64,000 bases of DNA from Bacillales bacterium UBA6120 (GCA_002422535.1 DIVY01000017.1:15176-79175); one strand, 5' to 3'. Counted from the stretch's first letter, positions 1 through 16,451 are shown. Translations and numbers: made by a program. Notes: generated by a model not told the origin, from the letters alone.

Positions 1-38
1 GGGATCAACCAATCAGGTTTTTGAAAGGATAGAAAAAA

Positions 39-1739
39 ATGAAACAATTAAATAACGATAATGCTGCTAATCGAACTAGTTATGTTGGACATGTTTATAA
101 CGTGGGGGAAAAAGAATATAAGAAAAGAATTCTTGATGGTCTACCAAAAGAATGGGCGGATTTACATCGTACCGGAGCAATCCACATTCATGATTTGGAC
201 GCCTATGATCTTACCTATAATTGTTTGACTTTTGATATACTTCAAAACTTCCCTTATGATGAGTTTCGAAGTCTAAGTGGTGCTGGTCAAATACTACATT
301 TATTCGATTGGTTTAAAAACCTTTTTACTACATTAGGAAACGAGCAATCAGGGGGAATGGCTTTTGCAAACTTTGATAATGAGGTGGCCACAATTCTTGA
401 AAACCTAGGCATCGATTTTCATCACCACCAAGAGCTGATTGAAGCATCTATTGCCGAGTTAATTCTTTGGTGTAATGGGAACCACTCGAGGATGGGTCAA
501 ACAAGTTACTATGTTTCCTTAAATCTTGGCTTAGCGAATTCAGAAGTCGCTAGATTCATCGCTCGGACAGTCATTAACAAATTCGAATCATTAGGAGAAA
601 AGGTTTTTAAGCCCAATATTGTCTTTAAGGTAGTTGAAGGAATAAATGCATCCCAAGGCAATCCTAATTTTGATTTACTGGAATTAGCCTTACGATGCAG
701 CGCAAAAAAAATGATTCCTACCTATCTTCTTTGTGATTGCAAAGAGGACCGAGATACCGATCCCCATAAATTGTCAGTCATGGGCTGCCGCACACGAGTA
801 GTGGCAAATCTATTTGGAGAAGACGGAGCGATTGGAAGAGGAAACATTTCTAATATTTCCATCAACCTTCCTCGCATTGCCCTGAAGATCGATGAAAGTC
901 ATCCAGAATTATCTTTTGAAGATAAGATGGACCTATTCTTTAAAAAATGGGATCAAGTGGCAATGACAACAAAGGATATTCTTTTGGATCGTTATCAAAA
1001 GCTATGCCAACGGGATGCCGATGATTTTCCAACAAATCTTAGTCATAAGCTCTGGTGTGTCGATTTTATAGAAAAAGAAAATTTAGAAAAAGTGTTTAAA
1101 CACGGAACATTGGCATTAGGTTTTATTGGAATAAGCGAAGCAATCGAAGTTCTTTTCGGGAAGAAATATTATTCAAACATGAATACCTACATTGCCACGC
1201 TTGGATTCATCAAACATATGAGGGACTATTGCGATTTTCTAAAAAATGAATACAAACTAAATTTTTCCCTACTAGCCACTAGCGGTGAATTGATTAGTGG
1301 TAGATTCATCGACTACGATAAAGAACTTTTCAAACCACGGGTAGATATTTTCTCAAAGGGATACTACACGAATTCATTCCATGTAGATGTCGATAGTGGG
1401 CTGCCTGGATATAAAAAAATCCAACTAGAGGGATTGTTTCATGAATACTGCAATGGGGGTTCGATTACCTATGTTGAACTTGGAGAAGCTCCATTGGAGA
1501 ATGTAGAGGGATTAAGAGAATACATTGAGATTGCCACGAAGGCTGGCGTTCATTATTTGGGCTTCAATTTTCCAAAGGATGTATGTAATTTTTGCGGTAC
1601 CTCTGGTGTATTCGATTACTGCCCCAGTTGTAACAGTAAAGATATCACCAGAATCAGAAGAGTATCCGGTTATCTTGAAATTCTTGATGGCTTTACAAAA
1701 GGAAAAATAGCTGAAGAAAAAAACCGGAAGAAGAATTGA
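39..1739 (+). CDS. nrdD: anaerobic ribonucleoside-triphosphate reductase (class III RNR), compact 566-aa form
   Basis: C-terminal glycyl-radical motif RRVSGYL preceded by a Zn-ribbon CNFCG...CPSCN. The ORF has full length in one frame. Its TGA stop overlaps the next ATG (TGAATG). Confidence 0.85.
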   Translation: MKQLNNDNAANRTSYVGHVYNVGEKEYKKRILDGLPKEWADLHRTGAIHIHDLDAYDLTYNCLTFDILQNFPYDEFRSLSGAGQILHLFDWFKNLFTTLGNEQSGGMAFANFDNEVATILENLGIDFHHHQELIEASIAELILWCNGNHSRMGQTSYYVSLNLGLANSEVARFIARTVINKFESLGEKVFKPNIVFKVVEGINASQGNPNFDLLELALRCSAKKMIPTYLLCDCKEDRDTDPHKLSVMGCRTRVVANLFGEDGAIGRGNISNISINLPRIALKIDESHPELSFEDKMDLFFKKWDQVAMTTKDILLDRYQKLCQRDADDFPTNLSHKLWCVDFIEKENLEKVFKHGTLALGFIGISEAIEVLFGKKYYSNMNTYIATLGFIKHMRDYCDFLKNEYKLNFSLLATSGELISGRFIDYDKELFKPRVDIFSKGYYTNSFHVDVDSGLPGYKKIQLEGLFHEYCNGGSITYVELGEAPLENVEGLREYIEIATKAGVHYLGFNFPKDVCNFCGTSGVFDYCPSCNSKDITRIRRVSGYLEILDGFTKGKIAEEKNRKKN

Positions 1740-2255
1740 ATGAAATATTACATTTCGGATTTGCATTTAGGCGATACGCTAGTGTTTAAGTTGTGTGGAA
1801 GAGAAATCACTATTGAACAATTCAATGACCTAATTATCAATAATTGGAATCGTGTCGTGCAAGAAGATGACGAAGTATATATTCTTGGGGATCTAGCGAA
1901 TGAAGAATACAAGGATTGCATCATTTGCCTACGACAACTCTATGGTAATAAGCATCTGATTATTGGAAATCATGACATCGAACTCCTTGAAGATGAAGCA
2001 TTTCGAATCCAATTGCAGAAGATAATGTCGATTAAACACGAAGACCTTATCGAAGATAGTGGTCGACTTGTCTTCCTTAGTCATTATCTACTCCTAGACT
2101 GGTCAGAATGCCATCGAGGAAGTTACCTGATTTATGGACGCATACACAACAAGTCCATACCAGAAATTAAGTCATTTTATAATTATAAACCTGCATTCAA
2201 TGCTAGCACTGATGTGACTGGATTCATACCGCAGACCCTTGATGAATTAATGTGA
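1740..2255 (+). CDS. calcineurin-like metallophosphoesterase (occupies the position where the NrdG activase is usually found)
   Basis: Motifs ISDLHLGD, ILGDL and IIGNHD fit the metallophosphatase motifs I-III. There is no CxxxCxxC radical-SAM cluster motif. It is translationally coupled to nrdD. Confidence 0.65.
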   Translation: MKYYISDLHLGDTLVFKLCGREITIEQFNDLIINNWNRVVQEDDEVYILGDLANEEYKDCIICLRQLYGNKHLIIGNHDIELLEDEAFRIQLQKIMSIKHEDLIEDSGRLVFLSHYLLLDWSECHRGSYLIYGRIHNKSIPEIKSFYNYKPAFNASTDVTGFIPQTLDELM

Positions 2256-2274
2256 TTAAAGGAGGCAAACAAAG

Positions 2275-2862
2275 ATGAACCATATATCAATTGAAGGCAT
2301 GGATGGCGTTGGCAAATCAACTACATGCAAATTATTGGCCGTTCGTCTCGGATATCAATTTGTTGAAAAACCCCTTCATTACCTACTTGACGACCATGAT
2401 GAAGAGATTACCCAATATCAAAAGGTCGCCAAGCGTGTGAATTCAAATAATAATCGTACCTTCACAGCTTGGTACTATGGTTTGAACAATATCTATCTTT
2501 ACGAAAAATTTAAAGGAATTAACATCGTCACTGATCGGCATATTGTTTCCAATTACTGCTGGAGTGGTACGAAAGACAATGTCGATATCTATCGATTGAT
2601 TTTAAATAAAATTGGAAAACCCAAACTAACGGTAATACTTTACGCTAGGCCAGAAGTCATAACCGAACGACTAACTCAAAGAAACGTGTGTGATTCTGAT
2701 ATTGCAAAAGTCGCTCTTAGCGAAGCGGCATACGAAAAGATGATCTATTTTTGCGAGAGGATGAAAATCAATTATGCCGTCGTGGATACAAGTGACAAAG
2801 TGGTTGAGGAAGTCGTCGAAGAAATCATCAGAAAAGTCATGGAGGTAAATAAAGATGAATAG
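2275..2862 (+). CDS. P-loop nucleotide kinase, thymidylate kinase (Tmk)/deoxynucleoside kinase-like
   Basis: N-terminal ISIEGMDGVGKST Walker A. VTDRHIVSNYCW matches the Tmk DRY region. PKLTVILYARPEVITERL matches the Tmk lid. SD AAGGAGG lies upstream. The stop overlaps the next start (ATGAATAG). Confidence 0.7.
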   Translation: MNHISIEGMDGVGKSTTCKLLAVRLGYQFVEKPLHYLLDDHDEEITQYQKVAKRVNSNNNRTFTAWYYGLNNIYLYEKFKGINIVTDRHIVSNYCWSGTKDNVDIYRLILNKIGKPKLTVILYARPEVITERLTQRNVCDSDIAKVALSEAAYEKMIYFCERMKINYAVVDTSDKVVEEVVEEIIRKVMEVNKDE

Positions 2863-5311
2863 CATTGAAACATATCGATTATCCCGAGATATGAAGTATG
2901 AAGCTCTCTATTGGTCTTTAGGGTTTGAAGAATTAGTCACATCAATTTTCACGAAAAAGTACCGTTCAGATCTGATTGCCATAATCGATGTTGATAAACA
3001 AGTTGTAGATTTTTCCGGAAGAATATCGATTATCAATGGCGATGCCTTAAAACTCAATACACACAAAAGCTTTGTGGTACTTGAATGCATCGACAAACTT
3101 TTGTCAATGGGGTATGTCCCAAACGAAATTATTGTTGATTTAAACAATGAGTACGACGTTTTTTTGAATGGCATCTACATTAAGTGTGATGAATGGAGTC
3201 AAAAATTGACCGCAGATGTTATAGTATCACCGGGAACATTTCTTTCGATAAGGTATCAATCTCGACTCGTTAGCGGAGTCATCGAAAGAAAAACCTTGAT
3301 TAATGATGGTTCGGGCTCGTTATTCCAATTCGGAATATTCGAAAACGAGACGAAGCTAGAAAAATACAAATTGTACAACTCATATGAAATTCAAAGCGAT
3401 GACTTTCTAATCAATGGCGGAGTCGCAACAAAATACATTGGTACATCTTCAAAAGCTTTTGTTCCCGAAGGTGTTCGAGAACTGGCGTCCTGTCTTTTTT
3501 GGGATAACCCGACGATTGAAGAAGTAGTTTTACCCGAATCATTGGTGGATCTTGGTGGGGATACGTTCTTTAATTGCGTCAATCTAAAAACAATCACCAT
3601 CCCCCATAATGTTAAGTTCATGGGTAACAATCCATTTGCAGGTTGTATTAATATCCAAATTCAAAACAATTCTCCTTATTTTCATTTAGAAAACGGCGCT
3701 TTGTATAATTGGAATTACAATAAAATCATTTTTTATTCGCCTAGTAACAAAGAACAAAAATACCTAATCAAAGATGGCACGAGAATCGTCGGAAAACATT
3801 CCTTCTATCTATGCAATAACCTTGAATGTGTAAAAATTCCTACCTCTGTCATTAAATTAGAAAATAACCCATTTTCGGGTTGTGAAAAACTTGATCTAAT
3901 AAACGGATCTGACTATTACCATGTAATTGATAAAGTAATTTATAACAGGGAAATGGACACGATTACGGGTTGCCTTAACTCCATCAGTTGCCCTGAATTA
4001 ATACTTCAAAACGTAAAACGAATTGGGAGAAATTCTTTTTGGAACTGCAAAGGACTGATAAATGTCGTCATTCCAAAGACACTAGAAGTTATAGGCTATA
4101 ATCCATTCGTTGGATGTTCGAATATCGAGTTTGAATCGCTTTCGTCAAAGTTTGTAGTCGAGAATCATGCTTTATTCATTGAGGATAAAAGCAAACTGAT
4201 TTGTTATCCACCAAAATACGCGGTAGGAGAAGTATTTTTACCAGATGAAGTCATAACTCTCGAACGTGGGGCGTTTTCAGGATGCGATAAGATGACTAAT
4301 ATCAATTTGCATAATGTGGCAGTCATAAGCAAAACCTGTTTCACTAATTGCCTCAATTTGGAAAAGATTTACTGTTCAGATATGGTTTCTTATATTGGCG
4401 AATGGGCGTTTGCTCATTGCCAAAACCTTAAAGAAATCTCGGTTTATAAGGATTGTTATCTCGATAAGAACTTGACATTGAATTCTACTGCAAGAATAGA
4501 AATCAGAAAAGAAAGAACAAACTATATCGTTGAATCAGATAATCTTTTCACTTTTAATTCGATGACAAGAAGTTATACAGGAAAAATTAAGTCAATATTG
4601 ATCGACCCACCATATAACACGAGAATTGATGCAATTGGTTACCAAGATCAGGGATTTTCTGGGGGATATTGTACATTCATGAAAAAACGCATCGAATTAT
4701 GTCATGTATTACTATCAGAAGATGGCTTTTTAGTAATTAACATCGATAAAGGTGAAGTACATGAGTTATCTAGGTTATGCAATTATGTCTTTGGACATAA
4801 AGCGAAAATCTATAAATGGGAAAAACTTCATCCCCTATTTGATAAAAACAGGAATGTTAATCCAAGAAAGAAATTGGTTAAATATGAATACATTATCCTC
4901 ATTTCAAAGAAGAAAAAAACAAGGCTTAATTTGATTTCAAAACCTTTGATTGTAAAAGGTAAAATCAAAGAAAAATGGAAGAAAATTCCCAAAATTCTTC
5001 GATGTTTTGGCACCACTTCTTCTGCGAAAGATGAAATCGAAGAAATTTTTGGCACACGGGATTACTTTTCTACCCCTAAGCCCGTGAAACTAATGAAAGA
5101 ACTGATCAGAGCAACGACTACAAAAGATTCGTTAATATGCGATTTCTTCGCCGGAAGCGGAACAGTGGGACAGGCTACAATTGAACTAAATCAGGAGGAT
5201 TGTGGGAAACGACAGTATATTCTCGTTAGTAACTCCGAGAATAATATCTGCCAAGAGGTGACACTAAAACGAATCCAAAAAAAAGATCCAAGTGTTGTTT
5301 TTCTTCGATGA
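2855..5311 (+). CDS. fusion protein: unknown N-terminal domain, BspA-type leucine-rich repeats (LRR_5) and a C-terminal beta-class N6A/N4C DNA methyltransferase domain
   Basis: Repeats of the form IPxxVxxIGxNPFxGCxNL span roughly aa 230-560 (e.g. TITIPHNVKFMGNNPFAGC, CVKIPTSVIKLENNPFSGC, VVIPKTLEVIGYNPFVGC, GAFSGCDKMTNINL, GEWAFAHCQNLKEISV). The C-terminal domain carries motif IV ILIDPPYN, FSTPKPVKLMKELI and motif I DFFAGSGTVGQA, in the IV-then-I order typical of Mod/beta-class MTases. There is no signal peptide. Confidence 0.8.
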   Translation: MNSIETYRLSRDMKYEALYWSLGFEELVTSIFTKKYRSDLIAIIDVDKQVVDFSGRISIINGDALKLNTHKSFVVLECIDKLLSMGYVPNEIIVDLNNEYDVFLNGIYIKCDEWSQKLTADVIVSPGTFLSIRYQSRLVSGVIERKTLINDGSGSLFQFGIFENETKLEKYKLYNSYEIQSDDFLINGGVATKYIGTSSKAFVPEGVRELASCLFWDNPTIEEVVLPESLVDLGGDTFFNCVNLKTITIPHNVKFMGNNPFAGCINIQIQNNSPYFHLENGALYNWNYNKIIFYSPSNKEQKYLIKDGTRIVGKHSFYLCNNLECVKIPTSVIKLENNPFSGCEKLDLINGSDYYHVIDKVIYNREMDTITGCLNSISCPELILQNVKRIGRNSFWNCKGLINVVIPKTLEVIGYNPFVGCSNIEFESLSSKFVVENHALFIEDKSKLICYPPKYAVGEVFLPDEVITLERGAFSGCDKMTNINLHNVAVISKTCFTNCLNLEKIYCSDMVSYIGEWAFAHCQNLKEISVYKDCYLDKNLTLNSTARIEIRKERTNYIVESDNLFTFNSMTRSYTGKIKSILIDPPYNTRIDAIGYQDQGFSGGYCTFMKKRIELCHVLLSEDGFLVINIDKGEVHELSRLCNYVFGHKAKIYKWEKLHPLFDKNRNVNPRKKLVKYEYIILISKKKKTRLNLISKPLIVKGKIKEKWKKIPKILRCFGTTSSAKDEIEEIFGTRDYFSTPKPVKLMKELIRATTTKDSLICDFFAGSGTVGQATIELNQEDCGKRQYILVSNSENNICQEVTLKRIQKKDPSVVFLR

Positions 5312-5555
5312 ATGTGTCTAATTACATGGTTTGCAATGTCTGGTTAGAGGTTTCTAATGAAATAAATCAAAAACAAAAATGAAATATATAATTTATAATA
5401 TATCAATTCGAATATATCATCTTTTTTAGTGAAGAAAAGATAGTGATTAGCAAAACCAAGTTATAGTTTCAATATAAAGCATGTTATAAAAAAGGCTAAG
5501 TAGTGGTTTTTAAAAAAATAGGAAAATATTTAATCGATTAATAAGAGGAGTTAGC

Positions 5556-6743
5556 ATGGATTATTTGCGGAACCACTATATCCCAAAATTTCTGTTGAAA
5601 AACTTTTCAGAAAAGGCCGAGAATGGAAAGTGGAAAATAAATTATATAAATCTCGGTTCTCGAAAAGTAGAACGGCGAAATCTTAAGGCAGTTTTTGCCC
5701 AGAATAATTTTTATGATATTCCGAGTGCTTCTGACACGAAGATACTCGAGAAACGCTTCAATTTGAAAATCGAAACTCCAATGGCTCAAATTGTGGACAA
5801 GATTATCAGTTCTAACGAAGGATACATCACAATTACAAGGAAAGAACTGGGAATAATAAAGAAATTCATTCTGATTCAGATGTATAGAAATCCAGCGAAT
5901 CAAGGTCAATATCAAAATGCTTCAGAAAAGGACTCATTCACATTCTCAAAAGCTTTCAAGAAAGAATCAGAAACGGATATTGATTATTGGAAACGGGAAA
6001 TGCTTTATGTGATTGAGCAATAATGGGATACGTTAATTACTCAAACTGATATGCCAGGAGTTCACCAGGTTGCCAACAATATCTTTACCGGGTATTTGAC
6101 TTTCTTCACAACACAAAATGAATTTATATTAGCTGATGTTCCGGTTTTTTCTGAGCGATTTCCTATGGAAATTCAAAAAAATCAGGAAGCCGATTTCATC
6201 AAATATGCTAGAGAATCTAGCAGGTCAAGAGGACTGAGTGAAGAACAAGCAGAAGCTAACATGAGAAAAGAGATACGTGAAAAATCAAGTTACATTGAAA
6301 ATTTCTTTGTCGTGGTACTTGCTCCTGGTCTTGCAATAGCTGTAATAAATGTGATTTGGAAGTTGCATTATCTTTATGATGGTCTTAATGGTCGTTTACA
6401 TAGTCCTATTTTAGGTAATCCAAAAAACCTAAAACTACCTCAAACCTATTATGCTAATAAACACATGATAAAGTATGAGGACGAAATCAAAAAATATAAG
6501 AATCCCAAAGATCAATATAGATACAATCTAATTCCATTAACTCAGCAAGAGACCGACTATCTTATGACTCTTTCACTCAACGAAAGTAGATTATTTATCG
6601 GTTTTAAAAACAAAGAAAGCATTCTTCGACAAGTCACTATTTACAACCGCTTGACAAAAAAAGAGTTAATTAACTTAAAAATCAATTTGCAGGATATTCC
6701 AAATCTAATTAATAATTTCAATTATGAGCGTGATAAGGGTTAA
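5556..6743 (+). pseudogene. DUF4238-family gene (Rst_DUF4238-like single-gene defence family) interrupted by one in-frame TAA at 6021-6023; ORFs 5556-6023 and 6051-6743 share a frame
   Basis: N-terminal HYIPKFLLKNF matches, from memory, the HY(V/I)P(Q/K)FYL(K/R)NF start of DUF4238. Both ORFs are in the same frame and are separated only by TAA plus 9 sense codons. The combined length is about 395 aa. An AT-rich promoter region and an RBS (AGAGGAG) lie upstream. Confidence 0.55.
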
Positions 6744-6930
6744 TCATATCATCATCTTTCAGCCATTCAGCGATTGATGGTTGCTAAAAACATTTCTTTT
6801 AGCATAAAATCAACTTAACGCTATTAAATTATTTGTCTCTTTTTCTTTTTTTTATGCTATACCTTTTAGCATATCCCCATTGTTAACCATACACCCCATA
6901 AGCGGGAGACAGCATTCATAGGAGGAATAT

Positions 6931-8568
6931 ATGTTTAAGAAGATGAATGTCGTTATCACTTCAATTGTGATGACGCTTAGCGTGCTTCTAAGTCTTTTTG
7001 TTTTGTATACGCCAGTTCCTACTGCTGATTCATCTGGATTCAGCGCGGTCCAGGCGGCTTCCTACATTAGTGAGATATCGAAAACACCACATGCCACTAG
7101 TGATGAACTTGAACATGAACGCGTGCGTTTATATTTGAAAGATACACTTTCGGAATTTGTCGGTGCTTCTAATGTGGTGGAGATGAACTACGCGAAAGAA
7201 GATGTCGATCCCGATTGTGAATATGACATTAAAAACTTACTAGCGACGATTCAGGGTACCTCGGATACTGGTATCATGCTAGTTGCCCATTACGACTCAC
7301 GGGGACATATTGGTCGCTCAGGCGAACTTGGTCGATCGTATGGCGCTGCTGATGATGGCTATGGTCTCGCGACGATGTTAGAGATTGCGCGTCTATATGG
7401 TAATCGAGACTTGTCAAACTCCATTTATCTGTTAATGACGGATGGAGAAGAGACGGGATTATATGGAGCCATCATGGCGGCGCAAGAAACGGCTTTGATG
7501 GATAAGATTGGCTTCGTGATTAATATTGAAGCGCGTGGCATTCAAGGCGCCGCTTATATGTTTGAGACTTCCACCAATAACAATAAAGTCATCGATTTCT
7601 ATCAACAAGCGAAACTTGAAGTGTCGTATAGCTTGGCTACGGCAGTATATACGGTGATGCCAAATATGACGGACTTTACCGCTTTCTTAGCCGTAGGCAA
7701 ACAAGGTGTGAACTTCGCAGTTCTCGATGGACTTAATTACTACCATTCACCTCTCGACAACTACGATAATATTGACCTGTCTTCCATCCAACATTACGGA
7801 AGCCAAATATTGCCAATGGTGGAAGAATTTGTCACCAATAGCGCTTACTCTGATGTCAATTATTTTGTCGGTACCCAAAATAGTGTCTTCTTTACCTTAT
7901 TACCAAATGTATTTGTGTCATATTCGGAAACCATGGCCATTATTATTAACATGCTTTTACTAGTTACTTTCATTGGTCTAGTGGTCTTTCTCGTCTTAAA
8001 AAAACAAGTCAAGTTACTCGCACTATTAAAGAACTTGGGATTTGTATTTGGTTCGCTTATTGTTACGGCAGTTATTGGACTATTCATCTCGAAGCTCATT
8101 GCCTTTATCGGAAGTGTTCCTTGGTCCATTACTTATGTAAGAATGCAAGGAACGGAACTTCCAACCATTTTAGTGATGCTTGGAACAATCCTAGGCTTCT
8201 CGTTCTTGATTCATCGGTTTATGAAACATAAAGAAGCGAAAGTATCGTTAATGCTTTCAGGTATCTTCCTTAATTTACTGTTAGCAACAGTAACGGGCTT
8301 TATTCTTTCAGGCGCCAGTTTCTTATTCATGATTCCCGCTTTAGTGGGCTTAATTGCTTTAATCGTTGATACCTTTGTTAAAAACAGGATTGTTAAGCAT
8401 GTGGCTTTTAGTCAAACTATCATTTGGAATGTGCTCATGATGATTCCCATTCTTTTCTCCTTATTCCTTTCCTTAACCGTGGGTGGTCTATTAGCGCTAC
8501 TCATCATTCAAACTTTATTCATGAGTGTGATGTTACCTTCGATCTTCTTACAACTAGAACTTAAATAA
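6931..8568 (+). CDS. membrane-anchored M28-family Zn aminopeptidase with a C-terminal polytopic membrane domain
   Basis: M28 metal-ligand motifs LVAHYDS, GAADDGYG and TDGEETGLYGA. An N-terminal TM is followed by 8 or more C-terminal TM segments. RBS AGGAGG. Confidence 0.8.
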   Translation: MFKKMNVVITSIVMTLSVLLSLFVLYTPVPTADSSGFSAVQAASYISEISKTPHATSDELEHERVRLYLKDTLSEFVGASNVVEMNYAKEDVDPDCEYDIKNLLATIQGTSDTGIMLVAHYDSRGHIGRSGELGRSYGAADDGYGLATMLEIARLYGNRDLSNSIYLLMTDGEETGLYGAIMAAQETALMDKIGFVINIEARGIQGAAYMFETSTNNNKVIDFYQQAKLEVSYSLATAVYTVMPNMTDFTAFLAVGKQGVNFAVLDGLNYYHSPLDNYDNIDLSSIQHYGSQILPMVEEFVTNSAYSDVNYFVGTQNSVFFTLLPNVFVSYSETMAIIINMLLLVTFIGLVVFLVLKKQVKLLALLKNLGFVFGSLIVTAVIGLFISKLIAFIGSVPWSITYVRMQGTELPTILVMLGTILGFSFLIHRFMKHKEAKVSLMLSGIFLNLLLATVTGFILSGASFLFMIPALVGLIALIVDTFVKNRIVKHVAFSQTIIWNVLMMIPILFSLFLSLTVGGLLALLIIQTLFMSVMLPSIFLQLELK

Positions 8569-8616
8569 CGAGCGATAGTTTCAATGATATTTCTCTAAAT
8601 CGTGTAAAATAAGCAC

Positions 8617-9600
8617 ATGGATATTTTACTTATCATTTTAGGAGTACTCGTCTTAATACAAATTGGCATTTTGCTACTGCTGTTTTTGAGTTTCAACCAC
8701 CGGGGCGATAACGATAAGAACTTAAAGTATTTCACCCATGAGGACTTTGATGATCTTGACGCCACATTAATTGAATTTCCTTCTAGGAAGCATACTTTAA
8801 GAGGATATATCTATCGTCCCAAGGGAGAGACGCCCCATCGCTTAATGGTGTTCAATATGGGCATTGGCGCGGGACATCATGCCTACATGCATGTAATTAG
8901 GGCGTTTGTATTACATGATTACACCGTGGTCGCTTATGACTATACGGGCTGCCAAATGTCAGATGGTAAACGCATGGGGGGATTACCTCAAGCGTTATTA
9001 GACTTCCAAGCGGTGATGGAATATATCGCTACTCGCGATGAGTTAAAGTCATTGCCAATTGACGTCGTGGGTCATAGTTGGGGTGGCTATGTAACTGGTA
9101 TTGCGCCTCGATTAGCCAAGAATATTCGAAAAGTCATCTCGATGTCAGGCTTCAATCGTGTGCCTGAAGTCATCGCAAGCAATCGTCCCATGTTAAAAGT
9201 CATGGGTCCCTTCGTTGATTTTGCCAATTACTTAATGTTTGGCCCAGTGGGCGTGTATGATATTGCTTCTTCAATTCGAGATACGAATATTCCCATGTTA
9301 TTTATCGCGGGCAGTCGCGATCCGTTTATTGATACGAACAAGCAAATTAATAAGTTCCAGCTATTAGCAAAAAACAAACCATTAATCGAATTTCACATCG
9401 AAGGCAAAAAGAACCATAATCCCTATCTTAGTGAAGCGGGCGAAGCTTACTTCATTGAAGTGTTAAAGAAGAAACGAGTGTTCGATAAAAAGAGGGAAAG
9501 CCCTGAAAGCCAGGAATTCTATAAAGCCATCAATTATGATCTCATCACTGAGAATGATGAAAATGTGTTTAAGGTGATGTTTGATTTTTTAGATAAGTGA
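8617..9600 (+). CDS. alpha/beta-hydrolase fold protein with N-terminal TM anchor
   Basis: Nucleophile elbow GHSWGG (GxSxG). Later Asp/His-containing segments are consistent with a catalytic triad. Confidence 0.65.
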   Translation: MDILLIILGVLVLIQIGILLLLFLSFNHRGDNDKNLKYFTHEDFDDLDATLIEFPSRKHTLRGYIYRPKGETPHRLMVFNMGIGAGHHAYMHVIRAFVLHDYTVVAYDYTGCQMSDGKRMGGLPQALLDFQAVMEYIATRDELKSLPIDVVGHSWGGYVTGIAPRLAKNIRKVISMSGFNRVPEVIASNRPMLKVMGPFVDFANYLMFGPVGVYDIASSIRDTNIPMLFIAGSRDPFIDTNKQINKFQLLAKNKPLIEFHIEGKKNHNPYLSEAGEAYFIEVLKKKRVFDKKRESPESQEFYKAINYDLITENDENVFKVMFDFLDK

Positions 9601-9613
9601 TGAGGTAAGTGAT

Positions 9614-10408
9614 ATGACTAATTTACAAATCGCCATCTTTGGAGTCGCCTTAATATTTGTGATGACCGTTGCCGGTTCAGTCATGGTGTACTTCTTTAAA
9701 AACACCATTAATGAGAAGTTTAATAAGATATTCTTGGGCTTTGCCGCTGGGGTAATGATTGCCGCGAGTGTCTGGTCATTATTAATTCCGGCGATTGACA
9801 TGTCAAATAATCAAGGTTTGGCCGGCTGGATTCCCGCCGCGGTTGGCTTTGTCGCTGGTGGCCTAGTGTTACTAGGAATCGATAAGTTAGTGCCGCACTT
9901 CCACGTCGAAGGGCATGTTGAAGAAGGCTTACCTTCAAAGCTATCAATGAGTTCTAAGCTATTTCTGGCGATGACGATTCATAATATCCCTGAAGGTTTA
10001 GCGGTTGGCTTCGCCTTTGGTGCCGCTTTTTTAAGTGGCGAGCGAGCGATGTTTCTCGCGGCGTTAGGTCTTGCGATTGGGATTGGTTTACAAAACTTTC
10101 CCGAAGGGGCGGCTGTTGTCTTACCTTTGAAGAAGGAATATGGCAATACCAATCAAGCGTTTGGCATGGGTGTTATCAGCGCCGTAGTGGAACCGATTGC
10201 CGCAATTATTGGCATCTTGCTCGCCTATTATGGAGCGGGGGGTATCATGATGCCGTGGTTACTCGCGTTTGCTGCGGGCATGATGATTTATGTCACCGTG
10301 GAAGAATTAATTCCAGAAGCTCATCTTGGTGAGCATAGCGACTTTGGTACCTGGGGTTTAATGATCGGATTTATGGTAATGATGATTCTTGATGTTGCTC
10401 TTGGATGA
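9614..10408 (+). CDS. zupT: ZIP-family divalent metal transporter
   Basis: HNIPEGLAVG ZIP signature, a His-rich loop HFHVEGHVEEG, and 8 predicted TMs. Confidence 0.8.
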   Translation: MTNLQIAIFGVALIFVMTVAGSVMVYFFKNTINEKFNKIFLGFAAGVMIAASVWSLLIPAIDMSNNQGLAGWIPAAVGFVAGGLVLLGIDKLVPHFHVEGHVEEGLPSKLSMSSKLFLAMTIHNIPEGLAVGFAFGAAFLSGERAMFLAALGLAIGIGLQNFPEGAAVVLPLKKEYGNTNQAFGMGVISAVVEPIAAIIGILLAYYGAGGIMMPWLLAFAAGMMIYVTVEELIPEAHLGEHSDFGTWGLMIGFMVMMILDVALG

Positions 10409-13938: not shown

Positions 13939-14027
13939 AAGAAATTTATTCAAATTCTATATTTTAAATTTCAAAGAAGTGATTTTAAAAGAAAAGCGAT
14001 CAGCCATACTCTAAAATCGTAAGAAGA

Positions 14028-14058
14028 AAGCCGTGAGAACGAATACCATGGCTTTTTT
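14028..14058 (+). terminator. rho-independent terminator after lemA
   Basis: AAGCCGTG / CATGGCTT stem (8 bp, one G-U pair) followed by TTTTTT. Confidence 0.6.
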
Positions 14059-14263
14059 GATATTTTTATGCTCTTAAATTAACTCTTTTGGCAAAAAAAA
14101 TAAGTGTAAACAATCCTGACAAGATAATCAATATTTAACGTTAATTTTATCAGAACTTCGTCGCTTTACTATTAAAATGTCATAAATAATAAACAATGTA
14201 CTTGAAAAATATATGACAAATGATAGATAATTATAGTGTAGTAAAAGGGAGGAACTTTTATTT

Positions 14264-14620
14264 ATGTTAAGCGGGGAAAAAGTTCAATACTTAAGGAAAA
14301 AAATGGGTTTATCACAAGAACAACTTGCTGATTACCTCAATGTTGATCAAAGTTTAATTTCATTGATTGAAAACGAAAACCGTAATTTTAGCATTGATAT
14401 GGCGGAAAAAATGTCTAAATTAGCGGGAATACATCCTGCCCAATTTTTTACGGACGATGTTCTTGATTTATCTGATGCAATTGCTCTAGATTTTCGCTCC
14501 ACGCCGTTTAGTAATGATGATTTGCTGATGATTGCCGAAGTTAACAATATCGTTGAAAATCTCCGTTGGATGAATCAAACAATTTCACTTAATGGTCAAA
14601 CCAAAAATGAAGAAATCTGA
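14264..14620 (+). CDS. XRE-family helix-turn-helix transcriptional regulator
   Basis: HTH_3 signature LRKKMGLSQEQLADYLNVDQSLISLIENENR. RBS AGGGAGG. Confidence 0.85.
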   Translation: MLSGEKVQYLRKKMGLSQEQLADYLNVDQSLISLIENENRNFSIDMAEKMSKLAGIHPAQFFTDDVLDLSDAIALDFRSTPFSNDDLLMIAEVNNIVENLRWMNQTISLNGQTKNEEI

Positions 14621-15350
14621 AATCAGAGAAAGACTAGCGATTGAAGCTAATAGAAAAAGAAAGGAATTGGGAATCGATCGAACCCCCGATTTCGACATCG
14701 TCAAAGCATTGATCAATTATAAAAAATTTACGATTGTTATTGCTCCACTTGGTCCCAATACTTCGGGAATTTGCTACAAAAATGAACATGTCATTGTTGT
14801 CAACATGAACCAAACCTTGGGACGTGCTCGCTTTACAATAGCGCACGAACTTTATCACTACTTTTATGGAAAAAAAGGAACAGATTATATTTCGCCGACT
14901 AGTTATAATCCGAGTAAGTCAATCGAAGAGTATGAAGCGGATATCTTCGCATCATATTTTTTAGCTCCCCGGGATGATTTTTTCCAGTTTATTTTTGAAG
15001 AAATACGAAAAAGCACGAAATTTAAATTGGTCGATATTTTGAAGATTGAACAGCATTTTATGATGAGTCGTAAATCAACTTTAATAAGGCTGAAAGATGA
15101 TGGTTTTATCGGCGATTATGAGTTTTCAATGTATGAAAATGGAGCGATCATGCAAGCAAAAACGAATGGCTATCAGGATTCGCTATATCGCCAGTGGTGT
15201 GCTGAACCAACCACTTTAGGATATTATCTAAATGCCACTAAATCGCTTTATGAACAGAATTTAATCTCGAAATCAAAACATGATGAGTTACTAATAGAAG
15301 CTTTTCGTACGGATATCGTTTTTAAAGAAAATGGCGTGATTAATGACTGA
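14592..15350 (+). CDS. ImmA/IrrE-family Zn metallopeptidase (anti-repressor-type protease); start may be the ATG at 14607
   Basis: HEXXH motif in FTIAHELYHYF. It overlaps the upstream XRE gene, the classic XRE plus ImmA pairing. Confidence 0.8.
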   Translation: MVKPKMKKSEIRERLAIEANRKRKELGIDRTPDFDIVKALINYKKFTIVIAPLGPNTSGICYKNEHVIVVNMNQTLGRARFTIAHELYHYFYGKKGTDYISPTSYNPSKSIEEYEADIFASYFLAPRDDFFQFIFEEIRKSTKFKLVDILKIEQHFMMSRKSTLIRLKDDGFIGDYEFSMYENGAIMQAKTNGYQDSLYRQWCAEPTTLGYYLNATKSLYEQNLISKSKHDELLIEAFRTDIVFKENGVIND

Positions 15351-15870
15351 CAGACTTGCCAATCATTATTTTGACGCGGATATTCTTTTGAATTTTTTTA
15401 GAATTCATCAAGAAAAAATCATCATAGGTTAAATAAATAACCGGTTTATTACCGAGCAGGTTTATAAAGAGTTTTTATCTTTGTGTAAGTATAGAATGGG
15501 TGCCGAAGTTGGCAACAGGTTAACTTTTTTAGTTGAAGATGGGAGGTATAAACTCGTAAATAAAAACAATTTTTCAATTCCCGAGTACCTTTATTACCAA
15601 TCATTGCTTGATCCGCAGATAGGTCGATAAGCCATCGGCAAAGGAGAAGCCTCTATTATCACGATGGTTAAATTTCGCAAAGGAATAATTGTTAGCAGCA
15701 ATTTTGCCGATGTCGCCGATTATGCACAGCAGTTGGGACTTGCTCATATAGGAACGATCGATATATTAAAAATGGCTTTTCAAAAAGGACTAATAACAAG
15801 TGAACAAGCTTTACGTATTCATTCAATGATGATTAAAATAGGGGCAAAATTGCCTCCTCTAATTTTATAA
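15343..15870 (+). pseudogene. DUF3368/COG2405 PIN-like (toxin-like) gene with two in-frame TAA codons at 15430 and 15628
   Basis: A single frame reads MTDRLANHYFDADILLNFF...*...ITEQVYKEFL...*AIGKGEASIIT...VADYAQQLGLAHIGTIDILKMAFQKGLITSEQALRI. This matches the DxGEAEAIALA...RKVAKxLGLxVxGTLGIL core of DUF3368 PIN-like proteins. Its ATG overlaps the ImmA stop (ATGACTGA). Confidence 0.55.
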
Positions 15871-15875
15871 TTGAA

Positions 15876-16451
15876 TTGCAATTTGCTAGCTTCATTTATG
15901 ATACAATTTGGTTTATGGAAAAACGCATCTTTAAAAATGAAACTAGTTTCTTCGGCAAACTAGAAACATTAATCCGCACCCTATGGGAAAAATCCTTCAT
16001 CCGTTTCGTAGTCGTCGGTGGTTTTAACACATTACTTGGCATTATTGTCACTTATATTCTTCGTTATTCATTTGATGTATTGATTGGTTACAACCCTAAA
16101 TGGGATTTTGTGTTCCTATGGTTTTTGAATCTACAAATCGATATCCCAGGTCTTATTATGTTCGTGGCACTACTGCCAGTGTCATACACCACGCAAGCCA
16201 TTTGGGCGTTTCGCACCAAGTGGAGCTTGAAGCGGTTAGCAATTTACCCGCTATCTTCCATCCCTAACTTCATCTTGCAACAAGGTTTCATTTATTTATT
16301 TGAAATTGTGTTGGGCGTCAATCCTTATATCAGTTATGCCCTCGCCGCGATATTGCCAATCCCGATTATGTTTTTCATCATTCGCTTCCTTGTTAAGCCC
16401 AATAAAAAAGCGGAGCCAATCACCCCGCTTCAAGAAGAAGATAACGAGTAA
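15876..16451 (+). CDS. GtrA-family membrane protein
   Basis: FIRFVVVGGFNTLLGIIVTYIL GtrA signature and 4 TMs. Confidence 0.6.
   Translation: MQFASFIYDTIWFMEKRIFKNETSFFGKLETLIRTLWEKSFIRFVVVGGFNTLLGIIVTYILRYSFDVLIGYNPKWDFVFLWFLNLQIDIPGLIMFVALLPVSYTTQAIWAFRTKWSLKRLAIYPLSSIPNFILQQGFIYLFEIVLGVNPYISYALAAILPIPIMFFIIRFLVKPNKKAEPITPLQEEDNE

Follow-up and report, generated by a model that had tools for sequence, protein, structure and literature searches.

A small set of genes for deoxynucleotide synthesis and DNA methylation, at one end of a 64,000-nt stretch of Bacillales bacterium UBA6120 (GCA_002422535.1, DIVY01000017.1:15176-79175), proved to be a cassette that recurs as a conserved, co-diverging and horizontally mobile unit of strict anaerobes in both prokaryotic domains. 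The whole 64,000-nt stretch is called the window below, and positions are counted from its first letter. The cassette core consists of nrdG, nrdD, a kinase of the thymidylate kinase (TMPK) family, a protein with an N-terminal domain (N-domain) and leucine-rich repeats (LRRs) of the LRR_5 type, and a beta-class DNA methyltransferase (MTase), the last two being fused here. A 134-aa protein (p134), a metallophosphoesterase (MPE), a DEDDh exonuclease and an upstream regulator of the XRE or WYL type are optional parts. The cassette is neither a housekeeping nrd locus nor a recognisable prophage.

We scanned one genome per GTDB species (185,579 species genomes) with an alignment of the kinase, which yielded 74 loci. 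Gene order was assessed by BLAST of the proteins of the window and of L001, a longer contig with the same locus, against all open reading frames (ORFs) of the 74 loci, where the flank sufficed. The order nrdG-nrdD-(phosphoesterase)-kinase-LRR/MTase was kept in every one of the 74 loci with enough flank. A first-pass annotation of the window, made from its sequence alone, had singled out the kinase-MTase pair beside nrdD, and this pair is found there in every related locus where the flank is long enough. A reciprocal search of metagenome contigs with the NrdD of the window returned 80 loci at 60-77% identity. Among those that could be tested, nrdG was upstream in 77/77, the kinase downstream in 67/68 and the LRR-MTase downstream in 65/66.

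Bacteria and Archaea share these five genes in one order, at 41-80% identity. Bacterial carriers belong to Bacilli/RF39, Acholeplasmatales, Mycoplasmatota, Clostridia, Treponema, Bacteroidales and Cloacimonadota, and archaeal carriers to Methanomassiliicoccales, Methanocorpusculum, Promethearchaeota, Hodarchaeota (Asgard), Bathyarchaeia and Nitrososphaerota. Binning of metagenome-assembled genomes (MAGs) may inflate the host range of the short contigs; long contigs and isolate genomes still span several phyla and both domains. The pairwise-identity matrices of NrdD, NrdG, the kinase and the LRR protein correlate with r = 0.66-0.84, and none of 999 permutations reached values as high. Therefore, the cassette genes diverged together as a unit. 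Identity between archaeal and bacterial copies averages 51% for NrdD and 46% for the kinase, with a cross-domain range of 41-59%.

Read with translation table 11, the cassette genes of the Mycoplasmatota loci L036, L046 and L069 (from Mycoplasmataceae, Malacoplasma and Ureaplasma ceti) seem to be in pieces. We rejected the possibility that these copies are pseudogenes, as their alignments run end to end through the stops, which is consistent with TGA encoding Trp (table 4). Read in this way, the genes are probably intact, in very small genomes.

In the window itself, the coordinates and junction strings that the first-pass annotation gave for four abutting or overlapping plus-strand ORFs at 39-5311 are exact. 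Its calls of nrdD, a phosphoesterase, a Tmk-like kinase and an MTase domain were upheld by Pfam, NCBIfam and PHROGs. The features are as follows:

1..55, plus strand: 3' end of nrdG, the radical S-adenosylmethionine (SAM) activase of the class III ribonucleotide reductase (RNR); the rest of the gene lies upstream of the window
39..1739, plus strand: nrdD, a 566-aa cone-less, formate-type (NrdD1-like) class III ribonucleoside-triphosphate reductase
1740..2255, plus strand: MPE, 171 aa, an optional cassette member
2256..2274, plus strand: 19-nt spacer with an AAGGAGG ribosome-binding site (2258-2264) for the kinase gene
2275..2862, plus strand: kinase of the thymidylate kinase superfamily, 195 aa, the marker gene specific to the cassette
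2855..5311, plus strand: 818-aa fusion protein of N-domain, LRR_5 and MTase
2855..3349, plus strand: N-terminal alpha/beta domain of the 818-aa protein (aa 1-165), weakly endonuclease-fold-like
3407..4534, plus strand: BspA-type LRR_5 solenoid of the 818-aa protein (aa ~185-560)
4562..5311, plus strand: beta-class amino-methyltransferase domain of the 818-aa protein (DPPY at aa 584-587, FxGxG at aa 764-770), resembling Type III Mod
5312..5555, no strand: AT-rich intergenic region at the end of the tightly packed gene run, with no convincing terminator called
5556..6743, plus strand: DUF4238 gene (PF14022, 5.5e-28 for its first piece), a frequent neighbour outside the cassette core

At the junction of nrdD and the phosphoesterase gene (TGAATG, 1737-1742), the stop codon TGA at 1737-1739 abuts the ATG at 1740-1742. 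The phosphoesterase gene stops with TGA at 2253-2255, and the kinase gene starts with ATG at 2275 after the 19-nt gap that holds AAGGAGG. The ORFs of the kinase and the 818-aa protein share 8 nt (ATGAATAG, 2855-2862), with GGAGG upstream. Since the tight packing is conserved across about 40-70 related loci, it goes beyond chance. Median gaps are -5 nt between nrdG and nrdD, 0 between nrdD and MPE, -20 between MPE and the kinase, -8 between the kinase and the LRR-MTase and -11 between p134 and nrdG. The 19-nt spacer seen here is replaced in most relatives by a 20-nt overlap between the phosphoesterase and kinase genes. This arrangement suggests that the cassette genes are carried on a single transcript and co-translated. 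A promoter and terminator scan found no more sites than in shuffled sequence.

While the packing of the proposed four-ORF operon holds, its completeness does not. The operon is cut by the window start, because nrdG and p134 lie upstream of it, and the four ORFs are the downstream two-thirds of the larger cassette. The same locus is present, by exact protein match, on L001 and on a second longer contig, L002; position 1 of the window corresponds to position 9963 of L001. On L001, nrdG occupies 9559-10017 (152 aa). It starts 404 nt upstream of the window and, in both contigs, overlaps the start of nrdD by 17 nt. The p134 gene (134 aa; L001 9158-9562) precedes and overlaps nrdG. Before p134, L001 carries a small XRE-type helix-turn-helix (HTH) gene and then a terminator-like hairpin, which is only suggestive of a terminator.

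The cassette lies in an island of low GC content. In 1-kb windows, GC is 33-38% over positions 1-7000 and 40-48% over most of the remaining window, and GC at third codon positions (GC3) is 0.343 in the island genes compared with 0.456 ± 0.041 in 21 other window genes. Windowed GC and GC3 both set the island genes apart, so the low-GC island of the first-pass annotation is real, although its contrast is milder than the 28-35% versus 43-55% claimed. It also runs past the end given as 5311, to about 6750-6930, with GC rising at an M28 peptidase gene (6931), and extends at least 10 kb upstream of the window on L001. The sequence outside the island looks like ordinary Bacillota chromosome and includes cmk, dnaD and recU. 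Neither tmk nor a second nrdD occurs in the 64-kb window, which has the canonical cmk and says little on the whole genome, and no tRNA gene that could serve as an integration site was found in it.

We then considered what surrounds the cassette elsewhere. An identical LRR-methylase protein is found in different flanks; around one such copy, on a 2.5-Mb scaffold, lie genes for SoFic, a DEDDh exonuclease and a Type I S subunit. Comparison of L004 with L005 and of L011 with L012 showed two things. A bin assigned to Bacilli and one assigned to Christensenellales carry cassettes of 96-99% identity, which reflects either recent transfer or binning error. One Bacilli MAG from horse faeces has two cassette copies, whose NrdD proteins are 81% and kinases 92% identical. 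Six genome loci have serine recombinases beside the cassette, and 15 have a DEDDh exonuclease gene after it. Directly upstream of the cassette, 21 loci encode a 73-aa XRE protein and 10 encode an XRE protein with a transmembrane region; a divergent WYL-like protein is the third alternative.

For a survey of the flanks, 149 immediate-neighbour ORFs were collected from 49 of the 74 genome loci. PADLOC matches among them include DEDDh, WYL, pVip, AbiD, AbiEi, Ago-associated SIR2 and several PDC candidates. Pfam matches include Abi_2, and housekeeping genes occur too. The low GC and GC3, together with flanks that seem rich in recombinases and defence genes, bear out the suggestion of a horizontally acquired, possibly defence-related module. 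On L001, the region upstream of the cassette (1-8645) encodes an Eco57I-like methylase (590 aa) and a 796-aa protein matching a Type IIG restriction-modification (RM) model, which form a split Type IIG system, as well as an SLFN-group-3/DUF2075 helicase (623 aa) and the paralogous proteins p262 and p264 (262 and 264 aa); its positions 7001-8000 are very AT-rich (26.6% GC).

Several observations stand beside these surveys. A prokaryotic viperin (PADLOC pVip, E-value 1.6e-80) lies immediately beside the cassette in two loci, and a WYL-domain protein in five (flanks of L003-L055). In the complete chromosome of a Methanocorpusculum (L075, 6500-11300), the cassette nrdD is broken by a ~1.3-kb insertion with reverse-strand ORFs. 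In a complete Clostridium sp. genome (L076, 6400-13100), all cassette genes are frameshifted, and long-read assembly errors are possible. Both copies look disrupted, as if decaying.

The reductase has the sequence hallmarks of a class III catalytic subunit. It matches PF13597 (1.8e-107) and TIGR02487 (342.3 bits, cutoff 326.35), and carries an RVxGY-type glycyl-radical motif, a finger-loop thiyl Cys and a four-Cys Zn site, with its radical-SAM activase NrdG encoded alongside. When aligned to Prevotella copri 8P23, to 9D3X and to T4 1H78, all catalytic motifs are kept: HIHDLD..NC with the bottom-face Cys, VMGCRT with the Met and the thiyl Cys, GRGN, TSGE, YYTNSFH, the CxxC..CxxC Zn site (CNFC...CPSC) and the glycyl-radical motif RRVSGYL. 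We take this motif set to be that of the formate-type NrdD1 enzymes. The HDLD..NC Cys and the Met-Gly-Cys motif suggest that the cassette NrdD would reduce NTPs to dNTPs in a formate-dependent manner. An altered NrdD chemistry is unsupported, because the catalytic residues are all conserved. The protein lacks an ATP-cone and starts ~110-150 residues later than cone-bearing NrdDs.

NrdG is a Fer4_12/Radical_SAM protein (Fer4_12 1.9e-24; phrog_626 3.5e-26). The p134 family, present in 35 of the 74 loci, has members of 134-170 aa with invariant KCGHVG, RVKH and YL(K/H)C motifs, which possibly form a Cys/His metal site; its gene is upstream of and overlaps nrdG in 35 bacterial loci. No match to p134, p262 or p264 was found in Pfam, PADLOC, PHROG or PDB sequences. 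The phosphoesterase, present in 46 of 74 loci and hence optional, matches Metallophos weakly in Pfam (4.9e-5) and phosphoesterase PHROG 547 at 9e-32. Its family profile matches Aquifex aq_1665 (1XM7) at 1.4e-19, and the metal-binding motifs DxH, GD, GNHD, H and GHxH are invariant.

The kinase is a member of the TMPK superfamily but scores outside the housekeeping Tmk equivalog. It matches PF02223 (Thymidylate_kin) at 1.1e-14 and 55 bits against a cutoff of 27, and carries the TMPK motifs IEGxDGxGKxT and DRH..S..W.G (P-loop and nucleoside monophosphate, NMP, site). Its score against the dTMP-kinase equivalog TIGR00041 is 46.9 bits, below the cutoff of 83.25. In PADLOC it matches PDC-M51B (2.6e-15) and VakA (5e-15), and weakly the pVip-kinase fusion. 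Hundreds of close homologues exist, every one unnamed or generically named, and the family is small, with 32 representatives at E-value <=1e-30 among 1.84 billion. Many distant relatives are single chains of kinase and LRR_5 repeats, which argues for the LRR as a partner of the kinase and against a role of the LRR in DNA recognition. One relative (P0340) is fused to a radical-SAM domain.

Kinase-LRR_5 fusions of ~700 aa also occur in a different conserved operon (L171-L177; for example, L173 2765-12757). It comprises a 46-aa ORF, a radical-SAM-SPASM protein (~520 aa), a 184-aa protein, Aminotran_5, NTP_transf_5 (~585 aa), the fusion, a 160-aa protein and a UvrD helicase, and adjoins TraG or IS66 genes. 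The operon looks like an uncharacterised conflict operon, or one resembling those for ribosomally synthesised and post-translationally modified peptides, on mobile elements. The C-terminus of the fusion has a CGSAC motif reminiscent of C39-type peptidases.

The fourth ORF had been described as an MTase. A methylase domain is present, yet the protein is not a plain MTase but the fusion of N-domain, LRR and MTase listed above, with matches to N6_N4_Mtase (PF01555, 7.4e-32) and LRR_5 (PF13306, 1.6e-41). Its AlphaFold model has a pLDDT of 73.5 overall and mostly 72-94 in the LRR. The LRR has a strongly conserved repeat motif (xNPFxGC / AFxxC) and Foldseek matches to 4GT6 and 4H09 at 3.5e-14. The methylase is of the beta class and has DPPY ahead of FxGxG. 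Its best PADLOC match is MTase_III (1.2e-44), and its Foldseek matches are Type III Mod subunits (6K0W, Mbo45V 7DSU and EcoP15I 4ZCF). The N-domain (aa ~10-165 in the model) has its best sequence and fold matches in the N-terminal regions of bifunctional RM enzymes and shows no evident conserved PD-(D/E)xK triad. Archaeal loci and some clostridial ones encode the methylase (about 280 aa) apart from the LRR protein.

Two further features of the window touch the cassette less directly. The DUF4238 gene is split into pieces of 155 and 230 aa by one in-frame TAA (6021-6023), a split that L001 and L002 share. About 20 other loci have an unbroken DUF4238 gene (390-495 aa) just ahead of the cassette, accompanied by one or two paralogous genes of the p262/p264 type or by a 420-aa membrane protein. 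This suggests that DUF4238 and the paralogous genes are a second unit that recurrently co-localises with the cassette. A second low-GC patch at 14000-16000 (33-34% GC) holds a Peptidase_M78 (ImmA/IrrE-like) gene at 14592-15350 and may be a fragment of another mobile element.

Our preferred reading, to which we give somewhat less than an even chance, is that the cassette is an undescribed conflict system, either immune or selfish and RM-like, in which the deoxynucleotide pool is controlled in concert with epigenetic marking of self. Such a role is favoured over general metabolism or a virus replication module by the setting in islands, by upstream regulators that interchange between XRE and WYL types, and by the recombinases, the methylase, the RM-like N-domain and the kinase relatives among defence candidates. 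In such a system, a promoter under repressor control would drive the operon, whose genes would be expressed together through translational coupling. The kinase ((d)NMP to (d)NDP) and NrdG-activated NrdD (NTP to dNTP) would form a private deoxynucleotide line, which in a cone-less NrdD would escape dATP feedback through the cone and which the phosphoesterase and exonuclease may feed or trim. The LRR solenoid would dock the kinase onto the methylase protein, and the DPPY methylase, an adenine or cytosine amino-methylase and probably N6-adenine-specific, would mark resident DNA. The N-domain may have come from a Type IIB/IIG-style nuclease or still be one. A fuller version, which we regard as unlikely, is a hitherto unrecognised immune or conflict system of bacterial and archaeal anaerobes in which the RNR and the TMPK-like kinase on its LRR scaffold make or drain a deoxynucleotide effector or signal while the Mod-like methylase marks self, as a glycyl-radical counterpart of the viperin-kinase logic. 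The effector or signal could be uncontrolled NTP-to-dNTP conversion or a non-canonical dNTP.

Two other readings fit the loci poorly. That this is an ordinary housekeeping nrdDG locus with unrelated neighbours would agree with the catalytically intact NrdD and NrdG and with the need of anaerobes for a class III RNR. It is largely refuted by the low-GC, low-GC3 island, by one five-gene order shared by Bacteria and Archaea in a patchy set of only 74 loci, by near-identical copies in different classes, two copies in one MAG and adjacent recombinases, by interrupted or frameshifted copies in complete genomes (L075 and L076) and by a kinase that fails the Tmk equivalog cutoff. We consider it the least probable of all, and the first-pass view that the locus recalls a phage-type module more than a housekeeping one is right in its second half, given that neither a standard nrd locus of the clade nor core-like GC was found. 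Scarcely more probable is a prophage remnant of nucleotide metabolism. All the enzymes have PHROG matches, in the nucleotide-metabolism families 626, 487, 547, 761 and 192, so the parts do have phage homologues, and the label of a phage module is partly apt. Only two close copies were catalogued in IMG/VR among 2.9 million viral contigs. On both contigs the cassette is accompanied by an XRE HTH gene and a tandem pair of large serine recombinases, and the complete copy (L078) adds a following ~400-aa ORF, the whole set filling its 10.8-kb contig. No Pfam virion genes were detected in the ~7 kb and ~5 kb of flank scanned on these two contigs or among the 25 most frequent Pfam families of the 149 neighbour ORFs, and megablast of window positions 1-7000 gave no match in 50,697 phage records or in plasmid collections.

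The more serious competitors to a conflict system keep the cassette mobile and give its enzymes other work. It may be mobile-element cargo without an immune role, a phage-style dNTP-supply set (nrdDG, dNMP kinase, phosphoesterase and exonuclease) with an orphan methylase; the methylase would shield element or host DNA from foreign restriction, and the other genes would benefit growth or replication in anaerobes. We hold this to be on the unlikely side, though well worth keeping. Orphan MTases are common cargo of mobile genetic elements, each enzyme has a phage counterpart in the nucleotide-metabolism PHROGs, the catalytic motifs are all intact under strong purifying selection, and carriers include small-genome gut Bacilli, Mollicutes-like bacteria and Methanomassiliicoccales. 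However, cargo leaves unexplained the fixed, coupled order and co-divergence across two domains down to 35-50% identity, the LRR, the N-domain and the kinase-LRR fusions, and the repeated swap of upstream regulators (XRE, XRE-TM and WYL); no replication genes accompany the cassette either. Rather improbable in our judgement is a non-canonical deoxynucleotide pathway, in which kinase and reductase turn an unusual or modified (d)NMP/NTP into an antiviral chain terminator, an immune signal or a modified DNA precursor, much as viperin with a CMPK2-type kinase or nucleotide-signalling systems do, and the methylase protein is a partner, sensor or self-marker. As in the viperin-kinase pairs, an enzyme of radical chemistry that works on NTP ribose is combined with a TMPK-family kinase, and this kinase matches VakA; kinase relatives are fused to radical-SAM (P0340) or, when LRR_5-fused, share operons with a radical-SAM-SPASM protein; and a kinase below the true dTMP-kinase cutoff may take another substrate. 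Base-modified nucleotides have a precedent as immune messengers (bioRxiv 10.1101/2024.12.20.629578). What speaks against this pathway is that NrdD scores above the NrdD equivalog cutoff and has kept all it needs for ordinary 2'-reduction, with the reducing Cys/Met pair among the conserved residues; the cassette also has no base-modifying enzyme besides the methylase and no identified signal receptor or effector.

Ribonucleotide reductases tend to be seen either as part of core metabolism or as auxiliary genes of phages. In the cassette, a complete class III RNR is tied to a DNA methylase, an LRR domain and a nucleotide kinase, in an operon that moves across phyla and domains into defence islands. 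This suggests that the synthesis of deoxynucleotides and the marking of DNA are functionally linked in a way not yet described. Should the cassette prove to be immune or selfish, radical-enzyme nucleotide chemistry beyond the viperins would join the prokaryotic defence repertoire, in one of few such systems common to gut Firmicutes, spirochaetes, methanogens and Asgard archaea at about 50% identity. BspA-type LRRs, otherwise familiar from proteins of the cell surface, would moreover gain a role in the cytosol. Even as metabolic cargo, the cassette bears on how nucleotide metabolism and methylomes of uncultured gut and rumen anaerobes are read.

No published description of the cassette was found in the full-text literature outside subscription-only sources, and two comparative-genomics papers in which defence nucleotide kinases appear are silent on NrdD and LRR. 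None of NrdD, the phosphoesterase, p134, p262 and p264 has a model in PADLOC. The PADLOC candidate PDC-M51 is represented by a weak B match of the kinase (54.7 bits), with no PDC-M51A among the matches listed (for the 818-aa protein, the best 25 of 36 families).

Among RM enzymes, the methylase domain is closest to Type III Mod (EcoP15I and Mbo45V), which it resembles in being of the beta class. Type III RM requires a Res subunit, and no Res-like gene is adjacent in any of the 74 + 80 loci. The N-domain best matches the N-termini of Type IIB/IIG enzymes (BsaXI and the Eco57I/MmeI class); unlike these, the cassette protein shows no evident conserved PD-(D/E)xK triad and has a beta-class methylase. 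It also differs from RM enzymes generally in the 375-aa LRR_5 solenoid between N-domain and methylase, and in its constant pairing with nrdDG and the kinase. With BREX/Pgl, the cassette shares a methyltransferase as a probable self-marker, a phospho-transfer enzyme, a phosphoesterase, the lack of an obvious restriction nuclease and a location in mobile islands. Its kinase, however, is a small nucleotide kinase rather than a protein kinase, its methylase is beta-class and Mod-like rather than PglX, an RNR is present, and PADLOC scans of all cassette proteins found no BREX components (PglZ, BrxC or BrxL).

On the metabolic side, the cassette resembles the T4-type nrdDG in its glycyl-radical C-terminus, thiyl Cys, formate-type Cys/Met pair, Zn ribbon and adjacent overlapping nrdG. 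Neither NrdD has an ATP-cone, and their lengths are 566 aa in the cassette and 605 aa in T4. T4-type dNTP-synthesis sets have the same enzyme inventory (nrdDG, dNMP kinase, nucleotidases and exonucleases). In contrast to them, the cassette resides in bacterial and archaeal chromosomes, without polymerase or replication genes, as a single operon with an LRR-methylase. It differs from an nrdDG operon in that the pair is embedded in a co-diverging operon with the kinase and the LRR-methylase, is mobile and patchy across two domains, and has XRE or WYL regulators upstream.

The prokaryotic pVip-plus-kinase and eukaryotic viperin-CMPK2 pairs are alike in combining a radical enzyme that takes a ribose hydroxyl from an NTP with a TMPK-family kinase, in defence-island settings, and the cassette kinase matches VakA, the PADLOC model for the viperin-block kinase. 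The cassette has no viperin-family enzyme; its sole radical-SAM protein, NrdG, scores the pVip models at E-values of 0.0046 and 0.0093, compared with 1.9e-24 for Fer4_12. Unlike viperin, the radical enzyme of the cassette is a glycyl-radical RNR with a separate activase, whose expected product is an ordinary dNTP, and to which a methylase and an LRR have been added.

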